A stretch of 64,000 bases of DNA from Leucoraja ocellata (GCA_036785375.1 JAWMAR010000076.1:7564001-7628000); one strand, 5' to 3'. Shown: positions 12,637-44,517, counted from the stretch's first letter. The notes: a model not told the origin generated them from the letters alone. Numbers and translations are program-made.

Positions 12637-12984
12637 CTCGGATACTGAGGAAGACTTGTGCATCGGAGTCTTGTGATCGGCTGGAGACATGGAGTTTATA
12701 GATTCCAGTGTCTAACAGAGACATGTTCCTCAGTCTCAGGGACAAGTTCCCATTGGAAATCTCGTTGGGAAAGACTTCAGTGCGGTTGCGAAAACTTGGA
12801 TCTTGCTCCGTCTGGTTGCTTTGGTTCCTTGGGTAAATGTAGACAATTCCCATTGTATCTGCCTTCTTCCAAACAAACGCCACACTGCCAATCTTATTCC
12901 CAGTCTTAAATCGACACTGGATAACATCATCATCTCCAGCTTTGGCTGTGACTCTGTCTTCGCTGCACTGCACCTTGAGGCGAC
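12637..12984 (-). CDS. Gene A IgV-set exon (B7/BTN-like; resembles VTCN1/CD276-type V domains)
   Basis: 348-nt phase 1-1 exon bounded by tttatag| and |gtaagg. Translation RLKVQCSEDRVTAKAGDDDVIQC...VW...EQDPSFRNRTEVFPNEISNGNLSLRLRNMSLLDTGIYKL... carries B7-family V-domain motifs (Q-x3-F/Y-R-x-R-T, GNxSLRL, DxGxY). Confidence 0.92.
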
Positions 12985-13099
12985 CTATAAATGTGATAAC
13001 CAAGAGTAGATTAAGCTGATCACCATCAGAAATAGAAAGCTTCATACAGTACTTCATGCTAATGCACCAGTCCATATCATGATAGGATAGATAGCACAA

Positions 13100-13366
13100 A
13101 CGGCGACAGATAGCACAATGGGCTAAGAGTTCGGCTGGCGACCGGAAGGTAGCCGGTTCAAATCCCGCTTGGAGTGCATACTGTCGTTGTGTCCTTGGGC
13201 AAGACACTTCACCCACCTTTGCCTGTAATGGAATGGCGGCAGGCGCGGGCACACCGCGACGCCCTGTGTCTCCCTTTCAAGGGAGATGCTAAAAATGCAT
13301 TTCGTTGTCTCTGTACTGTACACTGACAATGACAATAAATTGAATCATTTCATTTCATTTCATTTG
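13100..13366 (+). mobile_element. tRNA-derived SINE with CORE-like domain and (CATTT)n tail
   Basis: A-box tagcacaatgg, B-box ggttcaaatccc, CORE-like gtgtccttgggcaagacacttcaccc, then aataaa and a cattt tail. Lies ~115 bp from the gene A IgV acceptor. Confidence 0.75.
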
Positions 13367-14129
13367 ATCCTCAGAAAGCCATTTACTCTTGAACTACTCT
13401 ACTATCTTAACAGTTACATGCAAAACTGGATGAGGTGTCCTTTCAAACTTTTGGATCCAACTGGAATACAACTTGGATCGAGGGTAGGATCATTCATTTG
13501 AACTGGGAAATGCTAGGCAGCAGTGGTCTTAAGTTCCAATAGAGGAAGGGTGCAAGAGAACAAAGAGAATGCTTGTGATCTGCTGGTGACCAAGAAACTA
13601 AATAAGACAAATGGTGGCAGCATCAGCTAGAGAAGAGTCATTCATGAAAACAGGAGACGCAAGTATATTTTGGGAATGGGGGATACTAAATAACACAGTT
13701 GCTGCAAGTTTAAAATAAAAGAAACACTCAAATATGCAGCAGTCAGAAGACTGCAGAATATCAAAACCAGAAAAGCTAGAATGGGTATGAGATTGAGAAT
13801 TAAAGGTCTGAAGAAGGGTCTCAACCCAAAATATCTGTCTTTTCCCTCCAGACACTTACTGACATGTTGAATTCGTCAGCACTATGTTTTTTGCTGGAGA
13901 AATAAAGTGACAGGGAAGTGGAAGCTTAGGGTTACCTCTATAACTGAATAAAAATGTTCAGCAAATCACCCAACTATACTCATTTTTTTGTTTCTCTTAA
14001 TGTAAAGGAGTTAAATTCCAAACTTGTACAAGTGAATTGCTGCTTCACCCGAAAGGTGTGTTTGGGTAATGAGTTGGTGGAATGTGAAGAAATGGAAGGC
14101 AACTGTTCATACACATTTCTAGTACTGTT

Positions 14130-14258
14130 TAAGAAAGAACTGCAGATGCAGGTAAAAACGAAGGTAGACACAAAATGCTGGAGTAACTCAGCGGGTGAAG
14201 CAGCAAATTGAGAGAAGGAATTGGCGACATTTCGGGTCGAGACCCTTCTTCAGACTGA
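14130..14258 (-). mobile_element. Penelope terminal fragment with hammerhead-like motif
   Basis: Reverse complement reads gtctgaagaagggtctcgacccgaaatgtcgcc followed by the Penelope tail. Confidence 0.7.
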
Positions 14259-14384
14259 ATGGCCTACTCCTGCAGCTATTTTTCTGTTTCCCTTCTTAGG
14301 TCTTCATTCAGTTCTCTATTTACATCTTTCCAGCCAGATCAGTTACAATGCTCCAGCCTCAATTATGTGCAGTTTTGTCTGTCC

Positions 14385-15065
14385 TTTCCAGATTGACAAC
14401 ATTTTTTCTATAACATGGTACCCAGAACTGAATGCAATACTATACATGCAGGCTCACCAAGGTCTTATACAACTGCAGCATAACCTCCCAACTTCTATAC
14501 TCAATACTGATAAAGGCCAATGTGCCAAATGCCATTTTGACCACATTATCTACCCGTGACCATGCACCTGCACTCCTAGACCCCTCTGCTCTGCAACATG
14601 CTCCAGAGCCCTACCATTCACTGTGTAGGTCCTACCAATGTTAGACTTCCCAAAACGTAACACCACATATTTATCTGTATAAAATTCCATCAACCATTCC
14701 TCAGCACACCTGGTCAATCAAGATCCTGCTGCAATTTTTTACAGCCAGCTTCACTATCTGCAAAACCACCTACTTTTGTATCATCTGCAAACTTGCTGTG
14801 TATGTTCTCATCCAAATCATTGATATAGATGACAAGCAGTAACGGAACCCAGCAACAAACTGAGCCGCATCACTAGTCACAGGCCTCCAATCCGAGAAGC
14901 AACCTTCTGCCTCCTTCCATGAAACCAATTTTCTATCCATTCAGTTATCTCTCCTTGGATCCCCAGAAATCTAACCTTCCAGAGCAGCCTACCATGCAGA
15001 ATGTGGTCAAACACTTTGCTAAGTCCATTTCTACAGCTCTGCCCTCAGCGACCTTTTTGGACATG
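14385..15065 (-). mobile_element. Older CR1 LINE RT-region fragment
   Basis: Degenerate homology to CR1 RT (SKFADDTK-like aagtttgcagatgatacaaaag on the minus strand). Confidence 0.7.
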
Positions 15066-15070
15066 TCTTA

Positions 15071-15545
15071 ACATAGAAACATAGAAAATAGGTGCAGGAG
15101 TAGGCCATTCGGCTCTTCGAGCCTGCACCGCCATTCAATATGATCATGGCTGATCATCCAACTCAGTATCCTGTTCCTGCCTTCTCTCCATACCCCCTGA
15201 TCCCTTTAGCCACAAGGGCCACATCTAACTCCCTCGTAAATATAGCCAATGAACTGGCCTCAACTACCTTCTGCGGCAGAGAATTCCAGAGATTCACCAC
15301 TCTCTGTGTGAAAAAGTTTTCCTCATCTCGGTCCTAAAAGATTTCCCCCTTATCCTTAAACTGTGACCCCTTGTTCTGGACTTCCCCAACATCGGGAACA
15401 ATCTCCCTGCATCTAGCCTGTCCAACCACTTAAGAATTCTGTAAGTTTCTATAAGATTCCCCCTCAATCTTCTAAATTATATCGAGTACAAACCTAGTCT
15501 ATCCAGTCTTTCTTCATATGAAAGTCCTGACATCCCAGGAATCAA
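15071..15545 (-). mobile_element. CR1/HER1 LINE 3' fragment
   Basis: Nearly identical to 17403-17870. Confidence 0.9.
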
Positions 15546-16139
15546 TTTAAAAAAAAACTAAATTTGTGAGACAAGACCTCCCACGTACAAACCCACACTG
15601 ACTGGCCAATCAGCAGGCCCAGTCCTCTGGCCAATCATACAGAATAGTCACCTAGCCATACAGGCAAGAGTTGATTATAGAGTTGGATGCCGCAGGCCGC
15701 CACCCACCCCCACGTTGAGGGGACGGGACCCGACGGATCCCCCTAGGTATCACTCTAAAACTCTATGAAGTATCTGCATGAATTTCTCATTACTTGGGAA
15801 TATTTTGGTATATTTTCTGATATTAAAAAATTCAGTAACTGATTCAGTAACTGATTGTGTGCATTACTAAGGCCAGTATTTATTGCACATCCTGAACTTC
15901 CCATGGAGCTGTATTCAATTTGGTGTGGCTTTGTATACAAGCTAGTACCACATGCTGGGACTACCTTGTACACAAATTCTTAGGTTTAAGCATAATGAAG
16001 GAACATTCCAAAAACATGGAGTGGAGCATGCTGTTCCCAGGTGCCTTCTGAACCTCTTCATCCATATCCATATCTCTAGATTTATAAATCTCTGATCTTG
16101 GATGTGTGTGCATTTGTGCAATGTTCGTGTACGTTTTCT

Positions 16140-16680
16140 CCTCGAAAACATGACGCACTAACGGTGAAATATTTACATATTCTGATAGAGATTTACGTCG
16201 TGATTCCATGCATTATTTCTCGAGTTATTAATCAAAATGTTTAAACATCTGAAAGAACTTAGAAAATAAAACCACTTGGCTTTGGCTGATGACATCACAT
16301 TGGCTGCACGCTGTATTCACGCACTGCGAGTGACGTCACCCAGCTGCCCGCTCGCTCAGGGGTCCTCGGGCCGGCGCATGATGGGGAGGTAGCTCCCCTC
16401 TCTGTCTCTGCCCTCTCCCCATCTCAAAAAGGCGCCGAAAATCGGAAACCTCAGCTCCAAAAGGCAACGGACAGCCAGAAACACCAGCTCCAAAAGGCAG
16501 CAACCCCCCCCTCTCCCTGTCTCTCACTCTCTCTGCCCTCTCTCCCTGTCTCTGCCCTTTCTCTGTCTCTGACCTCTCTACCTCCCCTCTCCAGCCGCGC
16601 CTGTGCAGTTCGGGGCTATGCGTGAGTGGATAGGGCATGGACAGGGTAAAAGGAGCAAATGAATAATAATAATACATAAA
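16140..16680 (+). mobile_element. Fragment of the non-autonomous Helitron-like family seen at 46411-47220
   Basis: aaaacatgacgc..tttacatattc..gagttatt..aaaatgtttaaa..gctgatgacatcaca..gcactgcgagt aligns with the reverse complement of ~46960-47175. Confidence 0.55.
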
Positions 16681-17402
16681 ACAAAGAACAGTACAACATA
16701 GGAATGAACCCTTCGGCAACCCACAATGTTCGTGTCGAACATATCTCACATGATCCCAGCAAATCCAAATTAAAAAACTCCCCCACTTCCCAAAGATGAT
16801 ACATCTTTCAGAACTATTCCAAACATCAAACACAAAATTAAAAGATGTTAAGAAAATAAACACAAGCAAATCAGCATTCCCAGGTAAGTTGGAATGAGAG
16901 GAATCAATTTTCAATTACATCAGCAATCAGTGTCCTGCCACAAATATCCAAGTGTTTCTGCTTTGAATTATATGTTAGGGCACATTACATCTTTTTGTAT
17001 TAAGGAGATCATCAGGGAGTTGTGTCATTATGCTGCATATGAAATAATCTTGGCATGGTGGAATCTTGACTTTGTGGAATTGATGTTTATCCTTCCATTG
17101 TTATTTACAAATCGGTTTACAGATTTAAGTCTACACTAAAAACATTTAATTAGCGAAGGAAAGATATCAGCTATTTGACCTACCAGTGTCATTATATTTT
17201 TATGCTTCCCTCGTATTCAGACAGATTAGCCTGGTACGAACTAGTACAGAGCATGTTATTTATCAAGCTTTATTAACTCTGGACTATGACTTCAAATCAG
17301 CTGGTTGATAAATGAAGGACAGGTGGCATAAACGAGAGGCCATTTTCAGATAGGCAACTAAAACTATGACAGCAAGGTGCAGCAGCAGAGAATGGGACAG
17401 TA

Positions 17403-20400
17403 ATAGAAACATAGAAAATAGGTGCAGGAGTAACCCATTCGGCCCTTCGAGCCTGCACCCCCATTCAATATGATTATGGCTGATCATCCAACTCAGTATC
17501 CTGTATCTGCCTACTCTCCATACCCTCTGATCCATTTAGCCACAAGGACCACATCTAACTCCCTCTTAAATATAGCCAATGAACTGGCCTCAACTACCTT
17601 CAGAGAATTCCACAGATTCACCACTCTCTGTGTAAAAAATGATTTTCTCATCTTGGTCCTAAAAGATTTCCCCCTTATCCTTAAACTGTGACCACTTGTT
17701 CTGGACTTCCCCAACATCGGGAACAATCTTCCTGCATCTAGCCTGTCCAACCCCTTAAGAACTTTGTAAGTTTCTATAAGATTCCCCCACAATCTTGTAA
17801 ATTCTAGCGAGTACAAGCCGAGTCTATCCAGTCTTTCTTCATATGAAAGTTCTGACATCCCAGGAATCAGCCTGGTGAACCTTCTCTATACTCCCTCTAT
17901 GGCAAGAATGTCTTTCCTCAGATTAGGAGACCAAAACTGTACGCAATACTCCAGGTGTGGTCTCACCAAGACCCTGTACAACTGCAGTAGAACCTCCCTG
18001 CTCCTATACTCAATTCCTTTTGCTATGAATGCTAACATAACATTCGCTTTCTTCACTGCCTGCTGCACCTGCATGCCCACTTTCAATGACTGGTATACCA
18101 TGACACCAAGGGCTTGTTGCATCTCCCCTTTTCCTAATCGGCCACCATTCAAATAAGTCTACTTCCCCGTGTTTGCCACCAAAGTGGATAACCTCACATT
18201 TATCCACATTATACTGCATCTGCCATGCATTTGCCCACTCACCCAACCTATCCAAGTCACCTTGCAGCCTCCTAGCATCCTCCTCACAGCTAACACTGCT
18301 CCCCAACTTCGTGTCATCCGCAAACTTGGATATGTTGCATTCAATTCTCTCGTCCAAATCATTAATATATATTGTAAATAGCTGAGGTCCCAGCACTGAG
18401 CCTTGCGGTACCCCACTAGTCACTGCCTGTCATTCTGAAAAGGACCCGTTTACTCCTACTCTTTGCTTCCTGTCTGCCAGCCAGTTTTCTATCTACATCA
18501 ATACTGAACCCCCATTACTGTGTGCTTTAGGTTTGCATGCTAATCTCTTATGTGGGACCTTGTCGAAAGCCTTCTGAAAGTCCAGAAATAACACATCCAC
18601 TGGTTCTCCCTTATGCATTCTACTAGTTACATCCTCGAAAAATTCTAAAAGATTCGTCAGACATGATTTACCTTTCATAAATTCATGCTGACTGTCCAAT
18701 AATCTCACCACTTTCCAAATGTGCTGCTATCCCATCTTTAATAACTGACTCTAGCAGTTTACCCACTACCGATGTTAGACTAACTGGTCTGTAATTCCCC
18801 GCTTTCTCACTCCCTCCCTTTTTAAAAAGTGGGGTTACATTAGCTACCCTCCAATCCTCAGGAACTACTCCAGAATCTAAAGAGTTTAAAAAAATGATCA
18901 CTAATGCATCCACTATTTCTGGGGTTAATTCCTTAAGTACTCTGGTATGCAGCCTATCTGACCCTGGGGATTTATCGGCCTTTAATCCATTCAATTTACC
19001 TAACACCACTTCCCGGCTAACCGGGATTTCACTCAGTTCCATCTCATTTGACCCCCCGTCCCCTGCCATTTCCGGCTGATTATTTATGTCTTCCTTAGTG
19101 AAGACAGAACCAAAGTAGTTATTCAATTGGTCTGCCATGTCCTTGTTCCCCATGATCAATTCACCCGTTTCTGACTGCAAGGGACCTACATTTGTTTTAA
19201 CTAATCTTTTTCTTTTCACATATCTATAAAAACTTTTGCAGTCAGTTTTTATGTTCCCTGCCAATTTTTTTCCATAATCTATTTTCCCTTTCCTAATTAA
19301 TCCCTTTGTCCTCCTCTGCTGGACTCAGAATTTCTCCCAGTCCTCTAGTAGGCTGCTTTTTCTGGCTAATTTGTATGCTTCATCTTTTGTTTTGTTACTA
19401 TTCCCTGATATCTCTTGTTATCCACGGATGTACTACCTTCCCTGATTTATTCTTTTGCCAAACTGGGATGAACAATTTTGTAGTTCATCCATGCAGTCTT
19501 TAAATGCCTTCCATTGCCTATCCACTGTCAACCCTTTAAGAATCAATTGCCAGTCTATCTTGGCCAATTCATGTCTCATACCCTCAAAGTTACCTTTCTT
19601 TAAGTTCAGAACCCGTGTTTCTGAATTAATTATGTCACTCTCCATCCTAATGAAGAACGCAACCATATTATGGTCACTCTTGCACAAGGGGCCACGCACA
19701 ACAAGACTGTGAACTAACCCTTCCTCATTACTCAATACCCAGTCTAGAATAGCCTGCTCTATCGTTGGTTCCTCTACATGTTGGTTTAGAAAAATATCCC
19801 GCATACATTCCAAGAAATCCTCTTCCTCAGCACCCCTGCCAATTTGATTCATCCAATCTATATGTAGATTGAAGTCACCCATTATAACTGTTTTACCTTT
19901 GTTGCACGCATTTCTAATTTCGAGTTTGATGCCATCCCCAACTCCACTACTACTGTTAGGTGGCCTGTACACAACTCCCACTAGCGTTTTCTGCCCCTTA
20001 GTGTTTCGCAGCCCTACCCAAATCGATTCCACATCCTCCAAGCTAATGTCCTTCTTTTCTATTGTGTTAATCTCCTCTCTAACCAGCAACGCTACCCCAC
20101 CTCCTTTTCCTTTCTGTCTATCCCTCCTGAATATTGAATATCCTTGGATGTTCAGCTCCCAGCCTTGGTCACCCTGGAGCCATGTCTCCATGATCTCAAC
20201 TATATCATATTCATTAATAACTATCTGCACATTCAACTCATCCACCTTATTACGAATGCTCCTTGCATTGAGACATAAAGCCTTCAGGCTTGTTTTTACA
20301 ACACTCTTACCCTTTATACATTTATGTTGAAAATTGATTTTTGATTTTGATTTTTGCCCTGGATTTGTCTGCCTGCCACTTTTACTTTTCACGTTGCTAC

Positions 20401-20605
20401 CTATTGCTTCTACCCTCATTTTGCACCCCTCTGTCTCTCTGCTCACACATTTAAGAAACCCACCACCTCTTATTTTCTGTTTATTATATTTTTCTTCTTT
20501 CTCCCCTAAATGTTGGGTCTGAGTGCTTCCCTTCTCTGCCTCCTGCCTCACACACTGTCTACTAGCTTTCTCTATTTGAGCCCTTCCCCCAACTGTCCTA
20601 GTTTA
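17403..20605 (-). mobile_element. Near-complete CR1/HER1 LINE ORF2 (APE endonuclease + RT), frameshifted, in the gene A leader-IgV intron
   Basis: Consecutive ORFs encode NARSIRNK/ETWL/GDFN/SDH (APE), [40 protein letters not shown] and the C-terminal CR1 region; 3' tail ctatgtttctat. Confidence 0.95.
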
Positions 20606-20789
20606 AAGTCTTCCCAGTAATCATCACAAAGGAGAAAAAAAAAATCTTAAATCCAATTTGTTCGACAAATGCAATGGAAATAGTAGAATCAAGAAAATGT
20701 AAAGAACAAAATGGACAAGTATTGTTACAAAAATCTGCAGGTCAGACACAACCTGTAACAACTTTGACAATAGAGTTTCAGAGCAAGGA

Positions 20790-21505
20790 AGCAGAAGATG
20801 GGAGGATGGCTAATGTGGTGCCTTTACTTAAGGCTACATGGCCAAGCCAGGGAACTTATAGGCTGGTGAGCCTAACATCAGTGATGGAAATATTATTGGA
20901 GAGGATTCTGAGGAACTGGATCTACCAACATTCCAGAGTGGAGAAGTCGGATAATACAGAAGTAGTGCGAGTGGGGAGCGATGGTGTGGATTTGGTGTGC
21001 CGTAGGGCCCATGCTGTATCGCTAAAACTAAAACTAGACATTTGCCAAGTCGAGGACTCATTTGGGATAATCAGCATTGATTTGTGTGGGAAAATTATGT
21101 TTCACAGATGAGTGAATTTATTTTTGAAGGAATGACCAAATAGATTGTATACATCGATTTTGCACAGAAAGTGGTGATCCAGGTAGATGGGGAGGTGAAG
21201 ATGATGTTTGGCATATTGGCCAAAGAATAAGTGGCAAGCCATTTAGAACGGAGATGAGGAAATACTTTTTCCACATAGAGTTGTGAGTGTGTGGAATTCT
21301 CTACCTCTATCTCTACCTAGGGCGGTGGGGGCTGGTTCTCTGGGTGATTTCAAGAGAGATAGATAGAGCTCTTAGGGATAGCAAAGTTAAGTTATATGGA
21401 GAGAAGGCAAGAACAGGGTACTGATTGTGGATGATCAGCCTGATCACACTCATGGAGGTGTGGGCTCGAAGGGCCGAATGGCCCACTCCTGCACCTATTG
21501 TCTAT
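20790..21505 (+). mobile_element. Degenerate CR1 fragments
   Basis: RMANVVPL..YRLVSLTSV remnants and the CR1 3' tail. Confidence 0.7.
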
Positions 21506-21715
21506 AAGGCGGGATGTTAAGTATTTCCCTCCCCCACCCCCCAATTTTACAAAGCTGTTTATATTATCATGGGAGAGCAAAAAAAAAAGGTTAAATAATT
21601 CAGAATATTTATTTTGTCCAGATAAATAACTGGAAGTGTCTAATGAGCATGAATGCACAATACTGGATGAGATACAGGGAGATAAAAATTTTGAGATAAT
21701 ACTTAAATTATTTAC

Positions 21716-21776
21716 CGGCTATGGTAATTTCAACAGCAGCAAACAGGCAAACGAGCAAGTTGAGCAGGCAGTTCAT
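21716..21776 (-). CDS. Gene A (B7/butyrophilin-like Ig superfamily) signal-peptide exon, MNCLLNLLVCLFAAVEITIA(G)
   Basis: Minus strand reads cttctttctttag|aATG...GCC G|gtaaat: polypyrimidine acceptor, ATG, 20 hydrophobic codons + 1 nt. The phase-1 donor joins in frame to the IgV exon (G|GT CGC = G-R). Confidence 0.75.
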
Positions 21777-22039
21777 TCTAAAGAAAGAAGTAAAATAGCA
21801 AAGTTATTGCATTGAATTTTCTTCAATTACAAATAATAAACCAGCTGTATTTGTCTCCCTTCATGACATACAACTCTTCTCTACAAGGGGGGAGTTGATC
21901 ACTCCAACCATCAAGCAACCTTGCACTGCTGTGCCCATCGAAGTTCAATTCAATCTCTCATCTGCAATTTTAAGACTAATCCTACATGCAAGATTCTACA
22001 AGTGGAAACCTTAGAGATACAAAGTGGAAACAGGTTCAC

Positions 22040-22195
22040 CAAGTCTGCAATGACCTGGAATTACCCTATATAGCAGCACTATCCTACATATTAGGGACAA
22101 TTTACAATGTACAGAAGCCAACTAACCTACAAACCTGCACATCTTTAGAGTGCGGAAGGCGATCGGAGCTCAACCGCTGCACCATTGTGCATCCC
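22040..22195 (-). mobile_element. HE1-like (V-)SINE fragment
   Basis: The agggacaatttaca..aagccaactaacctacaaacctg core is shared with the copies at 49900 and 55407. Confidence 0.65.
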
Positions 22196-22820: not shown

Positions 22821-24140
22821 TCAATCAATCAATCAATCAACCTTTATTGTCATCTTGCAGGCAACAGTTGTTACAGTGCAAAATGAAAAGACGTTTCCCA
22901 GTGAATAGCGGAGCATCGCACATGAAATTTAAACACTTCACACATAATAACACTAAAAACAATCCAGTCCCTGATGGAACAGTATAAATAGTTAAAAGCA
23001 GGTAAAAAAACCCCAATGTTAAAATTCAATAAACCAATCATAAAAATGTCCAGGGCCGCTGATTTGAGTGGCCAGTGCCAGTATTAAAGTGTCCGTGCCA
23101 GCCGCAGAGTCAAGTCAAGTGACTGTGGGTGCAGAGTGACTGTTTAGCAGCCTCACAGCCTGTGGTAGGAAGCTGTTTAGCAGCCTCGTAGTCCGGGCTT
23201 TGATGCTACGATATCTCTTGCCTGATGGCAGGAGATCCAGGTGTGCGTGGAGGGGGTGCAGTTTGTCCTTGGCAATTCTCTGTGCTTTCTTCAGACAGCG
23301 GCTCTGGAACAGTTCTTGTACCGAGGGTAGGGAGACGCCAATAATCCTCTCTGCTCCCCTCACTACCCTCTGCAGAGCCTTCCTGTCCGAACAGTTGCAG
23401 GTGGAGTACCACGTATTTATGCAGTACGTGAGTACAGACTCCACCGTGCCCCTGTAGAAAGTCCTGAGGATGTTGGTGGGGAGTGAGGCCTGTTTTAGTT
23501 TCCTCAGGAAGTGCAGTCGCTGATGGGCCCGTTTGACGGTCCCAGTGGTGTTCCTGGACCAGGTGAGGCTGTCCGTTATTTGCACACCGAGGAACTTTAT
23601 GCTCTCCACTCTCTCCACAGCAGTGCCACTAATGTTGAGCGGTGTATGCTTTGGCTGCGCCCTCCTGAAGTCGACAACCATCTCCTTAGTTTTGTCGACA
23701 TTCAATTCTATGTTGTTTTTGCCGCACCAGTCCACCAGTTGTTCTACTTCCTCCCTGTACATTGTTTCGTCATCTCCACTGATGAGTCCCACCACTGTAG
23801 TGTCGTCCGCGAATTTTATGATTTTATTTTCCCTGAATCTGGCAGCACAGTCATGTGTGAGCAGTGTGAACAACAGCGGGCTGAGCACACAGCCTTGAGG
23901 GGAGCCGGTGCTCAGCGTGATCGAGCCTGAAGTGTTCTTGCCAACACGGACTGACTGCGGTCTCTCTGTCAGAAAGTCCAAGATCCAGTGACACAGGGTG
24001 GTGTTGAGGCCCAGCAGGGTTAGTTTCTCCACAAGTCTCCGTGGGATGATGGTATTAAACGCTGAGCTGAAGTCAATGTACAGGATTCTGGCGTATGTGT
24101 TCTTCTGTTCCAGATGCGCGATTACTGTGTGCAGCGTATT
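22821..24140 (-). mobile_element. 5'-truncated Rex1/Babar-clade LINE with an uninterrupted RT C-terminal ORF
   Basis: ORF 23115-24170 encodes [37 protein letters not shown] and [13 protein letters not shown], followed by a 3' UTR, aataaa and an (ATTG)n tail at 22821-22840. Confidence 0.92.
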
Positions 24141-24999
24141 CGGACCGTTTGGATCAAAGTACTGCATCATAAATCAGCCTTTTCAATCAATCATTATCCA
24201 GAACCATAAAACCACCCCCAAAACGCAGGTGCCAAATGTTTCAAACATTAAAGGTAAATGAAACAATGGACAACAGGTATAAAGGAGAACATACTACATT
24301 TGATGGTCTCCATAACTATGCTGGGCGACATGGCCAGGATATGAAAGACACAGGTCACTGTTGTATTTCCTATAATTCTGGTCTAGTTACTACTCCAAAG
24401 CAGTGCAAAGATGGATTTCCCATCTCGCCTTCCAGCGCCACACTTAAAATTCAACGGCTGTGTTGTCCAATATCAATGAGATGCCATCACCTTGCACATC
24501 CACCCTTCACCATTCCTAAATGACTGTTCCTTCTGAAACTCCATGGATTAATCTTCCACCTCCACTCTTTCACTCTCCCTTGCAAAATAAAACATTGGCG
24601 ATATAACATTGGCGACATTTATCTTTCTCTACCTCACCATCTGGAAGACTAAATCTGTCTCTAGGTGAAGTAGCAATTCACTTAAACTTCTTACAGTTTG
24701 GAACACCAAACAGCACAGTAACAGGCACTTCAGCTCAGCCCACAATGTATTTGCCGAACTTATCACAAATTAAACTAATCTCGGCCTGCATCTGATCTAT
24801 ATCCTTCTATTCCCTGCATATATACGTGCACATGTAAAAGTGTCACAACCAGAGGGAACAATAGTTACAAGGCCAGGCAAGCTCAGCTGAAATTGTACTC
24901 CTTTGAAGAATGACAAAATAAAATGTAATAGAGGCGCCCGGAATAATTCAATACCACTATAGCATATATTTCCATCTTTTTTTTAATCATTCAAATTTA

Positions 25000-33281: not shown

Positions 33282-33464
33282 TTGATCATACGCTGAATAA
33301 TCCAACCACATTTTTGTTTGGAAATGGAACGAAATAATAGAAATTGCATTAATTGCAATGTGTAAAAGGATTTGAGATACTCTATTATAATTTTGCTGCA
33401 TGTCATTGTGGTATATATCATGTTTTGATCGGTGAATATGTTTAGTTTGTGACTTTATTTCCCC

Positions 33465-34810
33465 GACAGGAAGAGCCCGGAGGCGGCGCAGGGACCGCAA
33501 ACAAAGACGTGGGAAGCGGGGAGGCTGGCTGAAATCAAACCCGCACCAGCCAGCTCTGCCCAGCATTTTCCTCGCGAATGTCCGGTCTATGGTGAGTAAA
33601 ATCGACGAATTAAGGCTGCGGATCACCAAACACAGACGGAACGCCGACTGCAACGCCATGGTCTTCACTGAAACATGGCTCAACGGCAACATCCCGGACA
33701 ACGCCATCGAGCTGGAGGGGCGCACTGTCTTCAGTGCCGACAGAACAGCGGAGGATTCCAGTAAGACCAAAGGTGGCAGACTGTGCATTTATGTGAATAA
33801 CACATGGTGTACGGACGTTGTTAGGATTGGTAGTCACTGCTCTGCTGACCTGGAATACCTGATGTTAAAGCGCAGGCCCTTCTATCTGCCCAGAGAATTC
33901 ACATCGACTGTTATCACTGCAGTCTATGTACCGCCGGACGCTAATGCTAGGCTAGCAATGGAAGAGCTGCAAGCTGCTATCAGCAAACAACTAACTGCTC
34001 ACCCAGAGGGGGCATTTATTGTTGCGGGTGATTTCAATCATTCCAACCTTAAAACGGTACTCCCCAGGTTCCATCAGCATGTTTCCTGCCCAACCAGAGG
34101 AAACAATATTCTGGACTTAGTATATACCAACATTACTGAAGCCTACAAAGCCCTCCCCCTCCCCCACCTTGGTCAGTCTGACTACCTCTCTCTGTTCCTG
34201 CTCCCCAAATACACACCTCTGATCAGACGTGTGAAACCTACCGTGAGGACAGTGAAGGTTTGGCCTGAGGGGCTGTCTCTGTTTTACAGGAGCAGTTTCA
34301 GCAGACAGACTGGAGTCTGTTTGCTACCCAGTCCACCTTCAACTCCCAAGTGGACATCAACTCATACACCTCAACAGTTTTGGACTATATAAAATTCTGC
34401 ACTGATAACGTCACTACCCACAAAGAGATAAAGACCTTCCCTAACCAGAAGCCGTGGATGAGCAGGGATGTCAGACTCCTACTGAAGGCTCGCGATGCCG
34501 CTTTCAGATCTGGCAACGCTGAGGGATACAGCTCATCCAGGGCCAATCTGCAAATGGGAATTAGGAATGCTAAACTCAATCACAAACGGCGGATTGAGGA
34601 GCATTTCCAAAAAAACTCTGACCCCAGGCGCATGTGGCAAGGATCAAATCCATTGCCGATTACCAGAAAGTTAACACCCCCCCCTCCCCCCAGACAACGC
34701 CACCCTTCCTGATGAGCTAAACCATTTCTATGCTCACTTTGACCGGGACAACAAAACTCCAGCCATCAAAGTTGCCCCACCCCCGAATGAACAACCCCTC
34801 AGTCCTCCAA
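33465..34810 (+). mobile_element. Rex1/Babar-clade LINE 5' part (APE endonuclease), frameshifted and 3'-truncated
   Basis: Encodes RRGKRGG..LPSIFLANVRS, FTETWL, VYVPP, AGDFNH, LDLVYTN, GQSD and FPNQKPWM. Confidence 0.9.
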
Positions 34811-34811
34811 C

Positions 34812-34955
34812 ATCCCAAAGATGTGCAGCTTCGTGGGTTAATTGAGTCAGTTAAATTGACCCTGGTTTGTCGGACAGTGTGAGTGTATGGGGTGATTGCA
34901 GATGGGCGCGGACTCGGCGGGTCGAAGGGCCTGTTTCCACGTTGCATCTCTAGTC
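34812..34955 (+). mobile_element. HE1-like SINE 3' fragment
   Basis: catcccaaagatgtgc..gggtcgaagggcctgtttcc tail. Confidence 0.6.
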
Positions 34956-35051
34956 TTCTCAAATCTCTCCTTTCGTGGCAAACTCACAATTCCTGGAACC
35001 AGTTTAGTGAATTGGACTGCTGCTACAGACTCTAGATCTTTTGGTAAGTAA

Positions 35052-35213
35052 AGGGCCTGTCCCACTTGGCTTTCTTTCGCACGCCATTTACACGACCTGC
35101 TAGCGTGTGGGTAGCGCGGGACGGGCGCACGGAGTGGTGTGGACTACGTCCCGAACGAAATCTTCACACGCCAGGCCTGTTGCGTAACTGACGGCCAAAG
35201 TGGGACAGGCCCA
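35052..35213. mobile_element. PIF/Harbinger-like MITE (~160 bp)
   Basis: TIR GGGCCTGTCCCACTT / AAGTGGGACAGGCCC flanked by TAA on both sides. Related right ends occur at ~27680-27695 and ~42041-42056. Confidence 0.8.
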
Positions 35214-38200
35214 TAATTGAGACAGGAAACAGTATTACAATGCTTCCCGGTGGGTACTAAACAATTGCAGCAAGACATTTTCACTTGTGTACTCAAATCT
35301 CCCTCATTACAAAGGCCACGCTATTATCTTTCTTAATTACTCGTTTGTCCCTGTGCCTTTAACTCTATCTCCCTTTCAACAACGTTGTTTACTACACTAT
35401 TCCAAAGGGATGCTCAGAACATCCCCCCACCTCCCAAGATTTTATGTTTCAATTTGTTGCCTTAACTTTTAGAATTTCTCAACCCAAGATTTTAAATATT
35501 TGTCGGATATCTATCACTGTTGCAGATGTATGATTATTTCCCATTTTAGAACAACAGAAATACTGATCAACGATAACCAAATATTTTTCTAATTTCAAAG
35601 GGCTCTTTGAGACTATCCTTCCTCTTAAATAGCAATCAGCCTTTCCTACTGTGAAAACCTCCTGGTTCTGGAATGCCAGAGCATAAGCTGGACCTTTTCA
35701 ACAATTTGTGGATGTCCACACACTCGAAGGGGTATCAAGAAGAGAAGAGAGAAATGCCATCTTGCCTGAGCAAACACCAGAAGATGGACCAGCTAATTTC
35801 TAGAGTTTGAATCACCAATCAAATTTAAAAAACAAGTAGCATGTCATGTCACAAACCAGTAAAAGAACAAATACAACAGCTCCAAAAGTCAAGGTTCATC
35901 CCATTGCCTAAAGCAGACATGACCACAGCAGAAGAAAGTTCATATGAGGTGACTAATGTTGATGATGCAGTTGCTGGCATTTTATTATTAGAATTAATTG
36001 CAAACAAGTATGCACGGGTAAGACATTTTATTGCCCATCCCAGGGTTGTTCTAAAAAGCTGGTGAATCATTCGAAACAGCTTTTGATACAATTGACAGCC
36101 TTGAGGCCACAGCCATCCTTTTTTTTAAAATATATAGTTTAAGCTAAAATTAAGACAAAATACGAACAGATTTTTTTCCCTAAGAGGCAATTAGTAATAA
36201 TTTGGTGAAGGAACACGAGGCCAGGTCACCAAGCATGCATTAGGAGCAGAAACTCATAGGGAAAGAAGGACAAGGGTGGTCAATGGCAGAGAAAGAACAG
36301 CAAAATGTAGGGAAAGCCCATTTGACTTCTGCACCCGCTCCACCATTTAACCATATATAAATAGCAGGCACGTGCTGTCAGGGTAGGCAAGGTCGGCAAA
36401 GCCTATCCTGACTAAAATTATAAAATGGTAAAAAAATATCATATATACCAAATATAAATAAAACATATATAAAATGGTCATAAATAATAACTGCACGGAA
36501 GAATTATGCTTCCCTAAGAGATCGAACTCTTAGGGGGGCATAATTCACCCATGCCTTTCATACAATCAATCTAAAACGCAGAAGTATGGGGTACTCACGA
36601 GCTGTCAACGCTGCTTCAAGCCATCAGTGGCAACGGTCCATAAAGACAGCTCAAATTCTGCCTTTACACCGTGGATTGCGTGTATGTGCGGCATTGCGCA
36701 CTGCAGAAGTACATTTCTTTGAACTATATGTTTTTAAATACTTTATTAAGAGATAGGACCTATTGAAGACAAATTACTTGATAACAGACGAGAGACCCAT
36801 CTGCGCTTGTGCGGTTTCCAAGTTTTTGTGAATTCACTGCACATCTAAAATTCACTCTTGAGGATAGTGAATATTTGGCACTGCCTATTTGAAATGGCTC
36901 CACTGCTAGATCTAGGCAACATGCAAACTGGATGAACAGCACCTCATATTCAACATGGGCAGGAAGAGGCACGGCGTCTCAGGCTTGCCCCGGACAATCG
37001 GTCTTACCCTCAGTAGAGCCACTGGTGTCAGAGGCCTGTTCCCAAAAGCCCAGACTCGACTATGCATTGGCAACGGTGGTCTCAGGTTTAGCCCAGTAGC
37101 TCAGTCTTCCTCAAACGTGTGACAGGGGAGCACAGCTAGCAGGGAGAAGCCCACTTTCTTTCCCTTCCTCCCTCCTCTTTCTAATCTGGTTCTTCCCTCC
37201 TCTGGCTTGAACTTCTGGGAGTCGGCTGTCGAGGTTTAGGTGGCCAAATCAGAAGCCAGCTAATTGGACCCAGCTGTTATCAATGATGCTGGGGATTGGC
37301 CTTCCCCGCCTCTTCGGCAGTGATAGAGATCAGAGCTGCATCCAAGAGTGGGCTCTGTCACCGTAGATAAATGCATGAAGTGGTTACGAGTTCCATTAAC
37401 CATCGTAAAGAAGCCCTGATTAAGAAGAGTAGATTTGGCAGAGCATAGAAAGGGGGAGGATGGAATGAATTCCTTACAAGGAATGAGCAGAGTGGGTGTA
37501 GACAAGATACAGGATAAGGAGAAGTATGAAATAAGTTGAGGGCAAAAATATACAGAAACAATGGATCTGTCAGAACAGTCCTACCTGTGCATCTTGGGAA
37601 GGATGTACAACCAGTTTGTAGATTGGATGACAACACGACAGTAGGCTCTGAAGTAAAGAGGTTTTAATGAAATTAAGAATATGACTTCCAGGAAACAATA
37701 CCCTAATACGTTTGGTCACCATTATGTGACAGGTAGGTGGTGACTTGCATTCAAAGCCTTGAATAGAATTCAAGCCATTTCATCAAACCACAGGTCAACA
37801 CTCAGTCTGAAGAAGATTCTCGACCTGAAATGTCACCTATTCCTTCTCTCCAGAGATGCTGCCTGTCCCGCTGAGTTACTCCAGCATTTTGTGTCTACCT
37901 TCAATTTAAACCAGCATTTGCAGTTCTTTCCTGCTCATCAAACCACAGTATGCTTTACTAGTACCCCATTCACCATTTTAAGCATTAAATCCTTCTTCAG
38001 TGCATCTCAGTATATACAAAATGTACAACAGTTGCTCATTCTGGCTACTCGCACAGCATATCCAAAACATGAACGCATAACAGAGTACATACGCGGGTAT
38101 CTGGAGTAAGTAACTCACTACTATATGAAATCAGCAGGTTTGCAGCAGCAGAAATGTATTCTCCATAATCTTCAACATCACAGCCCAGCCAACATTTTTC

Positions 38201-38435
38201 TCTCCTTCCACAATCAAACCAGGGATAACTGGTTCAATGAAGAGTGCAGGAGGGAATGCCAGGAGCAGCATCTGGCATGCCTCAGAATGAAGATCCAACA
38301 TGAAGCCCTAAGACAGGACTAATTGCATGGCAGAAGTCCTCCACTGGTTGGAATCATACCCAGCACAAAGCAGGCATGATATTCAACTCCAGAAAAAAAG
38401 TAGGAAGTATTGGCCAGGGGTCCTAGAGGTCAGCG

Positions 38436-38622
38436 AACCGAAAGGGTGGGACGCCTAAATGCAAACTAACCGAAAGGGCAGGTCACCTAAAAGCCAACTA
38501 ACCGAAAGGTTGCGTCGCCTAAAAGCAAACTCACCGAATGGCTGCTCTGCCGAAATGCCACCGACCTGAAAGGCGACGTCGCCCACAAGCCAACGGACCG
38601 AATGCCGTTCAACAGAAAAGTC
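38436..38622. repeat. Degenerate 32-bp tandem array (AACCGAAAGG-N8-CCTAAAAGCAAACT-like), ~6 units
   Basis: Units start at 38436, 38468, 38500, 38532, 38564 and 38596. Confidence 0.8.
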
Positions 38623-38959
38623 AAATAACTGACATGACGTTGCCGGGGGCGGGACTTGTCAGCGATTGGTCCAGACCCCCGCGTCCATCACTTCACTGTG
38701 GAGGGATGAACATTGTCCCACAACTCCGATCCACCTGATCCGCAGCCTGCAGAGGGTGGCCGTGGAAGAGTGGGGGCTGTGCACCTTTGGCCGCTTACAA
38801 CTTGGTGCCTCTCCCCCCTCTTCTCTCTCCCCCTCTCTTTCTCTCGCTCTCTCTCCTCCGTCTCCACCAGCGGGAGGGTGGGTGTCATTTTCCCCACACA
38901 AGCCATAGGTGACCAGGCAATCAGAACCCATGCACCAAGTTGACAATTCTTTTCTTCCC

Positions 38960-39400
38960 TCCCGTACCACCTGCTCCCCGGGCACTTTCCCTTGCAATCG
39001 CAAGAGATGCAACACTTGTCCCGTTACCTTCCCCCCTCGACTCCATTAAAGGACCCAAGCAGTCATTTCAGGTGCGACAGAGGTTAACCTGCATCTCCTC
39101 CAACCTCATCTATTGCATCCGCTGCTCTAGATGTCAGCTGATCTACATCGGTGAGACCAAGCGGAGGCTTGACGATCGTTTCGCCGAACACCTCCGCTCG
39201 GTCCGCAATAACCAAGCGGACCTCCCGGTGGCTCAGCACTTCAACTCCCCCTCCCATTCCGTATCTGACCTCTCTGTCCTGGGTCTCAATGGCCAGAGCG
39301 AGCAACACCTGAAATTGGAGGAACAGCACCTCATATTCTGTTTGGGGAGTCTGCATCCTGGGGGCATGAAGATTGAATTCTCGCAATTTGTTAGCTCTTG
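38960..39400 (+). mobile_element. Penelope-like retroelement GIY-YIG endonuclease fragment
   Basis: Encodes TCISSNLIYCIRCSRCQLIYIGETKRRLDDRFAEHL...LPVAQHFN...EEQHLIFCLGSLHPGGMKI. Confidence 0.92.
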
Positions 39401-39471
39401 TAGTCTCCTCCCTTCCTCAGCCCCTCAGGCTCTCCTCCCATCCCCCAGCCTTCGGGCTCATCCTCCGCCTT

Positions 39472-39671
39472 NNNNNNNNNNNNNNNNNNNNNNNNNNNNN
39501 NNNNNNNNNNNNNNNNNNNNNNNNNNNNNNNNNNNNNNNNNNNNNNNNNNNNNNNNNNNNNNNNNNNNNNNNNNNNNNNNNNNNNNNNNNNNNNNNNNNN
39601 NNNNNNNNNNNNNNNNNNNNNNNNNNNNNNNNNNNNNNNNNNNNNNNNNNNNNNNNNNNNNNNNNNNNNNN
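39472..39671. other. Assembly gap (200 N)
   Basis: Run of N. Confidence 1.
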
Positions 39672-40477
39672 GTTAAAGTGCACATTGTCAGATTTCATTA
39701 AAGGTCAGTTTTATACATTTTGGTTTCACCGAAATTACAGCTGTGTTTATACGTAGTTCCCCCATTTCAGGGCACCAAAATGTTTGGGACGCATGGCTTC
39801 ACAGGTGTTTGTAATTGCTCAAGTGTGTTTAATTGGCTACTTAATGCAGGTATAAGAGCTCTTTTCTCCAGTCTTTCCATCACCTGTAGAAACTTTTATT
39901 ACATGAGTTTCAAGGCTGTGCCAATGACAGTCAAAGAAGCCATTATGAGACTGAGAAACAAGAATAAAACTGTTAGAGACATCAGTCAAGTCTTAGGTTT
40001 ACCAAAATCAACTGTTTGGAACATTATTAAGAAGAAAGAGAGCACTAGTGAGTTTACTAATTGCAAAGGGACTGGCAGGCCAAGGAAGACCCCCATAGCT
40101 GATGACAGAAGAATTCTCTCTATAATAAAGGAAAATCCCAAATACCTGTCTGACAGATCAGAAACCCTATTGAAGAGTCAGGTGTGGATTTGTCAATGAT
40201 CACTGTCCGCAAAAGACTTTATGAACAGAAATACAGATGCTACATTGCAAGATGCAAACCACCGGTTAGCCACAAAAGTAGGATGGCCGGATTACAGTTT
40301 GCTAACAAGTACTTAAAAGAGCAACTACAGTTCTGGAAATAGGTCTTGTGGACAGATGAGAGGAAGATTAACTTATATCAGAGTGATATAAGTATGGAGG
40401 AGAGAAGGAACTACCCAAGATCCAAAGCATACCACCTCATCTGTGAAACACGGTGGTGGGGGTGTTATGGTCTGGGT
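39672..40477 (+). mobile_element. Partial Tc1/mariner (same family as 6366-7973)
   Basis: Colinear with ~6463-7260; encodes GLPKSTVWNIIKK, GRPRKT, WTDERKI and VKHGGGGVMVW. Confidence 0.9.
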
Positions 40478-41492
40478 GTTGACATGGATAGAAAATTGGT
40501 TGGCAGACAGGAAGCAAAGAGTAGGAGTAAACGGGTCCTTTTCAGAATGGCAGGCAATGGCGTGTGGAGTGCCGCAAGGCTTGGTGTTGGGGCCGCAGCT
40601 GTTTACCATATTAATTAATGATTTGGAAGAGGGAATTAGTCGCAACACTAGCAAGTTTGCGGATGACACAAAGCTGGGTGGCAGTGTGAACTGTGAAGAG
40701 GATGTTAGAAGGTTGAGTGAGTGGGCCGATGGGGGGCAGATTATTATCTCAATGGGGTTAGGTTAGGTAAGGGGGAGGTGCAGCGAGACCTGGGTGTCTT
40801 TGTACACTGGACACTGAAAGTTGGCGTGCAGGTACAACAGGCAGTGAAGCAAGCTAATGGAATGTTGGCCTTCATAACAAGAGGATTTCAGTACAGCAGT
40901 AAAGAGGTTCTTCTGCAGTTGTATAGGGCTCTGGTAAGACATCTGGAGCATTGTGTACAGTTTTGGTTTCCTAATTTAAGGAAGGACATCCTTGCAATTG
41001 AGGCAGTGCAGTGTAGATTCACGAGATTGATCCCTGGGATTGACGAGACTGTCATACGAGGAAAGATTAAAAAGACTAGACTTGTATTCACTGGAATTTA
41101 GAAGGATGAGGGTGGATCTTATAGAAACATATAAAATTATAAAAGGACTGGCCAAGCTAGATGCAGGAAAAATGTTTCCAATGTTGGGCGAGTCCAGAAC
41201 CAGGGGCCACTGTCTTAGAATAAAGGGGAGGCCATTTAAGACTGAGATGAGAAAAAACGTTTTCACCCAGAGAGTTGTGAATTTGTGGAATTCCCTGCCA
41301 CAGAGGGCAGTGGAGGGCAAATCACTGCATGGATTTAAGAGAGAGTTAGATAGAGCTCTAGGGGCTAGTGGAATCAAGGGTTATGGGGAAAAGGCAGGCA
41401 CGGGTTATTGATAGTGGATGATCATGAATGAATGCCGGTGCTGGTTCGAAGGGCTGAATGGCCTCCTGCAGTTATGTTCTATGTCTATGTTT
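40478..41492 (+). mobile_element. 5'-truncated CR1 LINE (RT to 3' end)
   Basis: Encodes [33 protein letters not shown] and RVVNLWNSLP; tail ttctatgtctatgtttct. Confidence 0.92.
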
Positions 41493-42252
41493 CTTTGAGG
41501 AGTTCCTGCAACATGTTGAAAAATTAGCAGCGACTAGAATGAAGCCGCCATGGAGAGTAGAGAGAATTCTCGTGCCATTGGTGGGTCGCCAGGAGGTCCG
41601 AGTGGGTCACCAGGAGATCGGAGGTTCTCGTAGGTTGTAATCAGTGCTGAATTTCATTGGCTCATTGGGGGGAAAAGGGTAGTTTTCAGAACCAAGGATA
41701 ACTGACCAGTAAAATGTTAAATGTTCGCCAAGCTTCACAGCCGTGTATCTCTGGCCTATTAAAGGTTGTCTCCACTCCTTCTCCCTCCATCTTTTAAAGG
41801 ACTTGCGTTAGCTGTCTTTTTACATTGCGGTGTGTGTCTGTTTCACCTTGGCTTTGCACCGTGTGAATTTTTTAGACAGCACTCTCCCCCCGCTTACCCT
41901 GTCTTCTGCCTGCATAACGGGCTGGTGAAGGAAGCAATATGTTTGTGTTCCACTCTGACATTCACTGTTCCAGTTGCTAGTTTTTCTGGCGACTGCTGGC
42001 AACTTGACAGTCGCCTACAGTCCGTTGAAAAATCACCTATGTGGGACAGGCCCATAAATTACTCCAGCACATTGCGTCTTTCTCAGTTCCAACCACTTGT
42101 AATCAGACATGGTTAATTTCCCACTTAGCTTAGCAGCCTTATTTATATGTTTATTGAATTTGCAAACAAACACAGTAAATTTAAATCGTCATTTGCTGTT
42201 TTTAATCTGGTTTTGCCCAAAGTCTTCCTGTTCCTTGATCTCGTGACATTTA

Positions 42253-43872
42253 CAGTGCATTCAGAAAGTATTCAGACCACTTCAGTTTTTCCACATTTTG
42301 TTACGTTGCAGCCTATATATTCTAAAATGGATTAAATTCTTTTTTTTCCACCAATCTACACGCAATACCACATAATAAAAAAGCGAAAACAGGTGTTTAA
42401 AATTTTTTACAGTAATTAAAAAGAAATAACTGAAATATCACATTTACACAAGTATTCAGACCCTTTACTCAGTACTTTGTTGAGGCACCATTGGCAGCGA
42501 TTACAGCCTCAAGTCTTCTTGGGTATGACGCTACAAGCTTGGCACACCTGTATTTGGGTAATTTCTCCCATTCTTCTCTGCAGATCCTCTCAAGCTCTGT
42601 CAGATTGGATGGGGAGCGTCGATGCACAGCTATTTTCAGGTCCCTCCAGAGATGTTCGATCGGGTTCAAGTCCGGGCTCTGGCTGTGCCACTCAAGGACA
42701 ATCACAGACTTGTCACGAAGCCCCTCCTGCATTGTCTTGGCTGTGTGCTTAGGGTTGTTGTCCCTGCCCCTGTCTGAGGTCCAGAACGCTCTGCAGCAGG
42801 TTTTCATCAAGGATCTCTCTGTACTTTCCTCCGTTAATCTTTCCCTTGATCCTGACTAGTCTCCCAGTTCCTGCCGCTGGAAAATATCCCCACAGCATGA
42901 TGCTGCCACCACCACCATGCTTCATCGTAGGTATGGTATTGGCCAGTTGATGAGCGGTGCCTGGTTTCCTCCAGACATGACACTTGGCATTCAGGCCAAA
43001 GAGTTCAATCTTGGTTTCATCAGACCACAGAATCTTGTTTGTCATGGTCTGAGAGTCCTTTAGGTGCCTTTTGGCAAACTCCAAGCTGGCTGTCATGTGC
43101 ATTTTACTGAGGAGTGGCTTCCGTCTGGCCACTCTACCATAAAGGCCTGATTGGTGGAGTGCTGCCGATATAGTTGTCGTTCTGGAAGGTTCTCCCATCT
43201 TCACAGAGGAATTCTAGAGCTCTGTCAGAGTGACCATCGGGTTCTTGGTCACCTCCCTGACCAAGGCCCTTCTCCCCTGATTGCTCAGTTTGGCCAGGTG
43301 GCCAGCTCTATGAAGAGTCCTGGTGGTTCCAAAGTTTCTTCCATTTAAGAATGACAGAGGCCACTGTGCTCTTCTGGACCTGCAATGTTGCAGAAATATT
43401 CTTATACCCTTCCCCAGATCTATGTCTCGACACAATCCCGTCTCGGAGGTCTATGGACATTTCCTTCGTCTTCATGGCTTGGTTTTTGCTCTGACATGCG
43501 CTGTCAACTGTGTGCCCTTATATAGACAGGTGGGTGCCTTTCCAAATCATGTCCAATCAATTTAATTTACCACTGGTGGACTCCAATCAAGTTGTAGAAA
43601 CATCTGTAGGATAATCAATGGAAATAGGATGAACCTAAGCTCAATTTTGAGTGTCATAGCAAAGGGTCTGTACAATTGTGTAAATGTGATATTTGAGTTA
43701 TTTATTTTTAATTACTTTGCAAACATTTCCCAACACCTGTTTTCACCTTCATTCTGGGGTATTGTGTGTAGATTGATCATTAAAAAAAAAGAACGTAATC
43801 CATTTTAAAATATGACTGTAACGAAACAAATGTGGAAAAAGTGAAGGGACTGAATACTTTCTGAATGCACTC
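42253..43872 (-). mobile_element. Full-length Tc1/mariner transposon (second family) with a frameshifted DDE transposase
   Basis: TA|CAGTGCATTCAGAAAGTATTCAG ... CTGAATACTTTCTGAATGCACTC|TA. Minus-strand ORFs encode [28 protein letters not shown] and [11 protein letters not shown]. Ends ~315 bp upstream of the gene B IgV exon. Confidence 0.93.
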
Positions 43873-44187
43873 TATCTCTCATAGCATATTTTTGTGCTTT
43901 AGTCCCACTCTGTTACTGGATATATCTATGCATCTCCTACAGTGAAGAGGGGCGTAAAATTGTGTTTAATGCCACAGTCTTTTCCTCATCCCCATTATAT
44001 ATTCTCCTGTCTTTGTCTACAAGAGCACTCTACAATCAAGGTATCCCTTGTTCCCTGAGTGTCATGTCATTGAAAGCATCTGTACTGATGTTAATCCTGC
44101 TCCCTCCACCGGTTAGTGCAAGAGTACTGGCTAGGATTTAATAATGGCTTGGATGGACTCGATGACCATCTATATCATTTGTTGCAG

Positions 44188-44517
44188 GTCACGTGGGGGT
44201 GAAGTGTGTGGAGGACCACCTAACTGTGAAGGTTGGAGAAGATCTTCTTGCCCGGTGCCATTATTCTTCCCCTGATGAAGCGAACAGCACTACTCTCAGT
44301 TGGACAAAGTTGGATACCATGACGATAATCTATAACTATTCAATCAGCCAGACAGAGCAAGATCCCAGCTCCCAAGACCGAGCTGAGGTTTTTGGCAGTG
44401 AAGGGAACATATTCCTGAGACTGAGAAACGTGACTCTTCTGGACTCTGGAATCTATGGACTTCGCGTTTCCAGTCGAACCCAAAGTAATGAGACCCACAT
44501 TATGTTAGGAGTAAGAG
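44188..44517 (+). CDS. Gene B (paralog of gene A) IgV-set exon
   Basis: 330-nt phase 1-1 exon bounded by catttgttgcag| and |gtaaga. Translation HVGVKCVEDHLTVKVGEDLLARC...SW...QTEQDPSSQDRAEVFGSEGNIFLRLRNVTLLDSGIYGLRVSSR is colinear with the gene A IgV. Confidence 0.9.

Follow-up and report, generated by a model that had tools for sequence, protein, structure and literature searches.

The extracellular parts of CD276 (B7-H3), VTCN1 (B7-H4), MOG, BTNL3/8, and PD-L1 consist of a signal peptide, an IgV domain, and an IgC domain of the butyrophilin (BTN) type (PF22705), followed by a transmembrane (TM) segment. The disulfide that canonically connects strands B and F of such a V domain can be re-routed. 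In the V-set domains of Siglecs and sialoadhesin, the F-strand cysteine is absent, and an intrasheet B-E bond within the ABED sheet is found in addition to an interdomain bond. Domain D1 of tetrapod LAG-3, which is of the V type, has lost its F-strand cysteine as well, and its B-strand cysteine pairs with a new one on strand G, as described in PMC10768021. For domain D0 of the human NK receptor KIR2DL4, a preprint (bioRxiv 10.64898/2026.02.18.706601) reports an allosteric disulfide between Cys10 on strand A and Cys28 on strand B, termed -RHstaple, in crystal 3WYR and its detection in cells by mass spectrometry; the A-B bond is reduced by protein disulfide isomerase in a Cys74Ser mutant, and switching between A-B and B-F bonds controls HLA-G binding (same source). 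Here, we analyzed a stretch of 64,000 nucleotides from Leucoraja ocellata (GCA_036785375.1 JAWMAR010000076.1:7564001-7628000; hereafter the window, with positions counted from its first letter). It carries two divergently oriented neighbouring genes, gene A on the minus strand and gene B on the plus strand, each with one B7/BTN-like IgV domain in which an A-B disulfide probably replaces the B-F bond.

The IgV exon of gene A lies at 12637..12984 on the minus strand, as supported by a Pfam V-set match, splice joints, and a structure model, and that of gene B at 44188..44517 on the plus strand, as supported by a Pfam V-set match. The B-strand cysteine (Cys23; TGT at 12914-12916 in A and TGC at 44256-44258 in B), the C-strand tryptophan, and the D-x-G-x-Y tyrosine corner are present in both. 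The canonical F-strand cysteine is missing and its position is taken by leucine (CTC at 12692-12694 in A and CTT at 44460-44462 in B), while another cysteine (Cys6; TGC at 12965-12967 in A and TGT at 44205-44207 in B) is found 17 residues before Cys23. A preliminary description of the window had quoted six motifs from these domains (DTGIYKL, DSGIYGL, VIQC, LARC, LKVQCSED, and VGVKCVED), all of which we found at the places given there; its count of exactly two cysteines per IgV domain, 17 residues apart and accompanied by the C-strand tryptophan, was likewise confirmed for both genes.

Relatives were gathered by word-indexed homolog searches and a hidden Markov model search in a clustered database (best 150 matches). 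We started from 632 V-domain alignments and removed those that were incomplete (125), duplicated (39), or truncated at the N-terminus (10). Of the 458 rows left, 31 score 121 bits or more and make up the family, with 29 distinct cores, while the other 427 reach no more than 66 bits, a clean separation. Family members come from batoids (Amblyraja, Leucoraja, Rhinoraja, Hemitrygon, Pristis, Mobula, and Narcine) and sharks (Heptranchias, Pristiophorus, Cetorhinus, Carcharodon, Chiloscyllium, Rhincodon, Heterodontus, Scyliorhinus, and Mustelus), and no chimaera or bony-vertebrate member was among the matches listed, which in a search of this depth does not establish absence. All 31 rows have the B-strand cysteine, a cysteine 17 residues before it (position B-17), and leucine (26 rows) or valine (5 rows) at the F position. 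In 28 rows these two are the only cysteines, and the extra ones in the other three adjoin the B cysteine. The 29 cores, all from named sharks or batoids, share the pattern at 31-99% pairwise identity, with Cys6 and Cys23 among only 12 invariant columns, and the cysteine codons of the paralogs differ synonymously (TGC/TGT). Since the pattern is common to 29/29 cores while identity falls to 31%, it is not explained by chance or an assembly error; judged from the sequences, it is a real, conserved, lineage-wide feature.

In a tree calculated with both trait columns masked and a long-branch sialoadhesin-like row left out, 25 family rows form one clade (98/97), in which a third paralog, gene C, is sister to A and B, and each group occurs in sharks and batoids. 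An initial tree that retained the trait columns had placed the long-branch row inside the family and was redone without it. The topology and the presence of each group in both lineages point to a single change that predates both the duplications and the split of sharks and rays. Gain of the A-strand cysteine and loss of the F-strand cysteine fall on one stem branch, and because the single clade was recovered with the trait columns masked, we attribute their association to one ancient event and not to statistical coupling.

Outside the family, 391 of the 427 V domains have both the B and the F cysteine, which agrees with the near-invariance of the B-F disulfide from which the preliminary description had started. 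Other B7/BTN-like loci retrieved from the genome that yielded a scored distinct domain (20 rows) all have the F cysteine, and their residue at position 6 is glycine, alanine, valine, or threonine. A cysteine at B-17 is present in 24 of the 399 non-family domains that have a B cysteine, the named ones being teleost BTN-like proteins, and 22 of these 24 retain the F cysteine; these rows are top matches rich in repeats and are not independent. The signature that had been proposed as diagnostic of the subfamily is so only in part: the A cysteine combined with F loss is diagnostic, but the A cysteine alone is not. As a search pattern, the motif given for it (V-x-C-x-E-D-x(13)-C...D-x-G-I-Y-x-L) fits only 6/29 cores, whereas the relaxed form [VI]-x-C-x16-C...D-x-G-x-Y-x-[LV] covers 29/29 cores and 0/427 others. 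The expected co-variation is similarly limited: gain and loss do co-occur on the stem branch, but this is a single data point and most non-family domains with the A cysteine keep F. Conversely, F loss without A gain was seen in six non-family rows, four of them from one sialoadhesin-like protein; the sialoadhesin-like match P0057 lacks the F cysteine and shows the Siglec-like pattern, with the B cysteine re-partnered within the ABED sheet.

Three further cases of altered cysteine patterns were noted. A Sparus aurata repeat protein (P0041) with A and B but no F cysteine was considered as an independent A-B case and rejected, as it also has E- and G-strand cysteines. A SKINT/VTCN1-like V domain from Latimeria (P0124) combines an A-strand cysteine and an F cysteine with serine at the B position and a cysteine one residue earlier, and may represent another rewiring. 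Six BTN-like V domains (P0046, P0058, P0126, P0129, P0133, and P0177; the three named ones are from teleosts) have exactly three cysteines (A, B, and F), a triad as in KIR2DL4 D0, which by analogy makes them candidates for disulfide switching.

Where, then, does the new cysteine sit in the fold? The residue at B-17 is glutamine in 16 of 25 distinct top V-set matches of this genome, which are mostly T-cell receptor (TCR)- or light-chain-like by appearance, and four more have glutamine 16 residues before the B cysteine. In the IgStrand scheme, according to PMC12051499, the A-strand anchor is often Glu or Gln, is a backbone neighbour of the B-strand cysteine, and contacts the backbone of the F cysteine. 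Because the B-17 register matches the glutamine of TCR and light-chain V segments, we place the new cysteine at this anchor site. The residues at position 6 in the 399 non-family domains with a B cysteine (G 152, V 59, P 28, C 24, A 22, S 19) are small or hydrophobic, as would be expected of an inward-facing site. A single-sequence AlphaFold model of the IgV domain was unusable (predicted local distance difference test, pLDDT, of 45.5), so the alignment-based one was used (pLDDT 91.3, predicted template modelling score 0.84). It matches PD-L1, B7-H3, B7-H4, B7-H6, MOG, and BTN3A1 at Z 16.6-17.8, with PD-L1 at Z 17.8 and a root-mean-square deviation of 1.8 over 111 aligned residues. DSSP assigns strands 3-6 and 23-26 in this model, which would fit an antiparallel 6:23 pair. 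DSSP ranges, IgStrand scheme, and glutamine register together put Cys6 at an A-strand position neighbouring the B cysteine, as in KIR2DL4. A new cysteine of the LAG-3 type (B-G) or the Siglec type (B-E) does not occur in the family, and the G column holds T, A, or K and no cysteine in any of the 31 rows. The number of ectodomain cysteines is even in 16/20 full-length members, and the four odd ones have non-conserved extras, which leaves no alternative partner.

Based on this position, the invariance, the even counts, and the KIR2DL4 precedent, we predict that Cys6 and Cys23 most likely form a same-sheet A-B cross-strand disulfide that replaces the B-F bond. That genes A and B inherited an A-B bridge from their common ancestor had already been suggested; this is still the best reading, the ancestor having also given rise to gene C, and in view of KIR2DL4 the bond type is not unprecedented. 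Several points weigh against the predicted bond. KIR2DL4 D0 is not known to be a V-set domain. It comes from an unrelated family, and its A-B spacing is 18 compared to 17 here. The 6:23 register was read from DSSP ranges only, and 28/50 alignment rows behind the AlphaFold model are family members themselves. The coupling of gain and loss rests, as far as the sequences go, on a single evolutionary event. Moreover, 12/24 non-family domains with the A cysteine also have a G-strand cysteine, compared to 9/375 of those without it; since the two often co-occur in teleosts, the A position can face G as well as B. B-17 is thus a recurrent site of cysteine gain, apparently able to pair with G as well as B, and loss of the F cysteine is not a necessary consequence of the gain.

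Among the alternatives, the one that survives best, though we consider it improbable, is that the domain, like other V domains without a disulfide (for example CD2), leaves its two buried cysteines unpaired, and that they are conserved as thiols with a role in packing or in binding metal. The B-F bond is not indispensable for the folding of V domains, and PMC12051499 names CD2 as an exception. The 12/24 non-family A-cysteine domains without a G-column cysteine indicate that an unpaired A cysteine seems tolerated when B-F is intact. However, neighbouring thiols usually pair in the oxidizing endoplasmic reticulum. Both cysteines are also invariant over three paralogs in sharks and batoids although their codons differ, and the equivalent KIR2DL4 pair does bond (bioRxiv 10.64898/2026.02.18.706601).

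Less probable still are interchain bonds, which would create covalent homodimers or A/B heterodimers and which the preliminary description had offered as its alternative. Divergent neighbours that are tail-less and have Gly/Ala-rich TM segments would suit such pairing, and a KIR2DL4 Cys10Leu mutant oligomerizes less, so that A-strand cysteine chemistry can affect oligomers (bioRxiv 10.64898/2026.02.18.706601). The B cysteine, on the other hand, is a core residue between the sheets, as established Ig anatomy and PMC12051499 have it, position 6 is an inward-facing small-residue site, and the even ectodomain counts leave no spare conserved cysteine; the inward orientation and the even counts disfavour interchain bonding. 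A Siglec-like interdomain bond between one V cysteine and IgC is barely conceivable: the two extra cysteines in the gene A IgC domain (ectodomain positions 169 and 175) could offer a partner, but they form a C-x5-C pair confined to group A, groups B and C keep the V pattern without it, and the V cysteines face inward.

With regard to their class, the IgV domains of A and B match Pfam V-set PF07686 (E 8e-9 and 2e-11, respectively), and both IgC exons match BTN-type PF22705. The order signal peptide, IgV, BTN-type IgC, and TM on phase-1 exons is that of a B7/butyrophilin-like ectodomain. The cytoplasmic B30.2 domain of canonical butyrophilins is lacking, as both proteins end right after the TM segment (VCWSWW in A and IYWSW in B), and no family member lists PF00622 or PF13765. 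The best PDB sequence matches are CD276 and B7-H4, and the best folds PD-L1 and B7-H4. Database names of family members are inconsistent (CD276-like, BTNL8-like, VTCN1-like, and MOG-like), the nearest named relatives of A and B among the matches listed are skate proteins, and the ESM Atlas returned only generic BTN/V-set and Ig light-chain names. In the tree, a CD276-like gene of this genome (L006) and echidna VTCN1 fall outside the family clade, and the 113 columns leave deeper nodes unresolved. By these sequence criteria, the proteins resemble B7/BTN-type surface IgV-IgC molecules and are not canonical butyrophilins, with orthology to a named B7 protein not established.

In the proposed A-B arrangement, the B cysteine, without an F partner, would bond to the A cysteine within one sheet, and leucine or valine would occupy the core space vacated by the F cysteine. 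Evolution may have proceeded via a three-cysteine (A, B, and F) intermediate, which would have avoided a disulfide-free step; the route is plausible because this state exists today in teleost BTN-like domains and KIR2DL4. As both A and B are nearly tail-less, a role as surface ligand or partner chain would be more likely for them than one as signalling receptor. A further idea, which we regard as doubtful, is that the A-B bond, obligate in this family, is strained in the manner of an -RHstaple and can be opened by cell-surface thiol isomerases, so that genes A to C would be a redox-gated B7/BTN-like ligand trio of sharks and rays. In the absence of an F cysteine as substitute partner, the domain would on reduction switch between a stapled and a disulfide-free state, and this would gate binding to lymphocyte receptors, possibly the germline-joined VJ receptors encoded ~150-850 kb downstream of gene C.

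Gene A further comprises a signal-peptide exon at 21716..21777 (minus strand; tblastn to P0005 and P0206, AG/GT ends), an IgC exon at 8794..9075 with the canonical cysteine pair plus the extra C-x5-C pair, and a TM exon at 8363..8457, after which the protein ends without a cytoplasmic domain. Another upstream exon, approximately at 37584..37652 (minus strand), was located by tblastn with the N-terminal extension of P0206, a transcript-derived open reading frame (ORF) (23/23 identical), and is probably mostly 5' leader. P0206 also links the signal exon to the identical gene A V domain. The extra pair (NCTGGSVC), conserved in 7/7 full-length group-A proteins checked and in none of groups B and C, probably forms a hairpin disulfide. 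A run search listed no match recorded as RNA; evidence for splicing stems from unassembled RNA-seq reads of run X24, which span the IgV-IgC (16 reads) and IgC-TM (22 reads) junctions, whereas run X21, from another organism, gave almost no coverage. Joints in X24 (12408/12637, 23 reads; 10050/12195, 18 reads) together with translation define an alternative exon with a stop codon at 12195..12408 on the minus strand, whose usage is similar to that of the direct splice from IgV to IgC (23 vs 16 reads). Its stop follows after 33 codons, ~110 nucleotides ahead of the 3' junction of the exon, and the product is either a soluble protein made up of the V domain only or an isoform destined for decay. 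The stingray model P0006 contains this exon at ~96% protein identity with the frame shifted; here, the DNA seems to be better kept than the reading frame.

Gene B continues with an IgC exon (PF22705, canonical two cysteines) at 49569..49853 and a TM exon at 52353..52444, both on the plus strand, and likewise ends without a cytoplasmic domain. Its signal exon was found neither in the readable sequence of the window nor by a short genome search, in which the known V exon went undetected as well; it is present in near-identical transcript-derived and RefSeq proteins. The TM exons of both genes are strongly conserved in sharks and rays, Gly/Ala-rich, and carry WSW(W) at the stop, a possible motif for TM pairing or trafficking. 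Three of the transcript-derived gene B variants P0192, P0194, P0196, P0198, and P0200, namely P0194, P0196, and P0198, read TLILTK for TLSWTK and have thus lost the C-strand tryptophan; Trp38 is not invariant among the 29 family cores.

A genome search located gene C 57 kb past the end of the window, with an IgV-IgC-IgC organization and the cysteine pattern of A and B. On a second contig (G000:C5:13801-17985, compared to G000:C76:7572798-7576982), an identical copy of the V exon of gene A is oriented the other way with respect to gene C, and gene B has no match there, which suggests that the haplotypes differ by an inversion or that the difference lies in the assembly. From ~150 kb downstream of gene C onward, IgV sequences of the VJ type, germline-joined in single exons and belonging to several subtypes, form a large cluster over G000:C76:7837139-8544445 (L086, L088-L099). 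Some copies stand in tandem, 2 kb apart, for example YYCTVWGDIRGNGTQVNVT followed by a splice donor. Names returned by the ESM Atlas for this cluster are light-chain-like only, and we presume a resemblance to non-rearranging receptor genes such as NCR3/NKp30, a label that is not established. A synteny lead to IRG/IIGP GTPases from the fused gene models P0202, P0016, and P0028 was dropped, as none of 56 PF05049 matches from 69 scored candidates was on contig C76. Fragments of long interspersed nuclear element reverse transcriptase/endonuclease and of Tc1-like transposase were seen by eye in the ORF list at 17511-20602, 23115-24173, 33436-34712, 40373-41411, 42420-43213, and 62705-63595.

The literature searched contained no account of this gene trio, its cysteines, or a V-set B7/BTN-like family in which the A-B arrangement is obligate, although prior mention is possible as two key shark B7/NCR3 papers and supplements were outside the search; the passages searched in PMC12841164, PMC10751288, PMC12151841, PMC11926128, PMC12227049, PMC13358205, and PMC6795676 hold nothing on the family. 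Being fixed throughout an entire elasmobranch gene family, the pattern supplies a clean motif for three orthologous groups whose database names are inconsistent. For the present, it is a structural curiosity in an uncharacterized immune-type family, which could nevertheless serve to test whether A-B bonds are inherently allosteric or can be purely structural.

Overall, the predicted bond would add another rewiring of the Ig core disulfide, A-B without an F cysteine, to B-G in LAG-3 and B-E in Siglecs: the gained cysteine is on strand A in the shark and ray family, on G in LAG-3 D1, and on E in Siglecs. Named B7/BTN proteins share the ectodomain layout but have the canonical B-F bond, while the family lacks B30.2 and forms its own clade. 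Teleost BTN-like V domains (for example those of Dicentrarchus, Larimichthys, Siganus, Girardinichthys, and Scatophagus) have the same cysteine at B-17; unlike the family, they mostly retain the F cysteine, about half have a G-strand cysteine, and they fall outside the elasmobranch clade. The likeness to KIR2DL4 D0 lies in the extra A-strand cysteine as partner of the canonical B-strand cysteine. KIR2DL4, however, keeps Cys74 on strand F and switches between A-B and B-F, whereas a third cysteine enabling such a switch is absent from the family, in which leucine or valine at F leaves A-B as the sole possible intradomain bond. The family is a counterpart found in nature of KIR2DL4 when locked in its Cys10-Cys28 state, with the three-cysteine domains of teleosts as a plausible path between the states.

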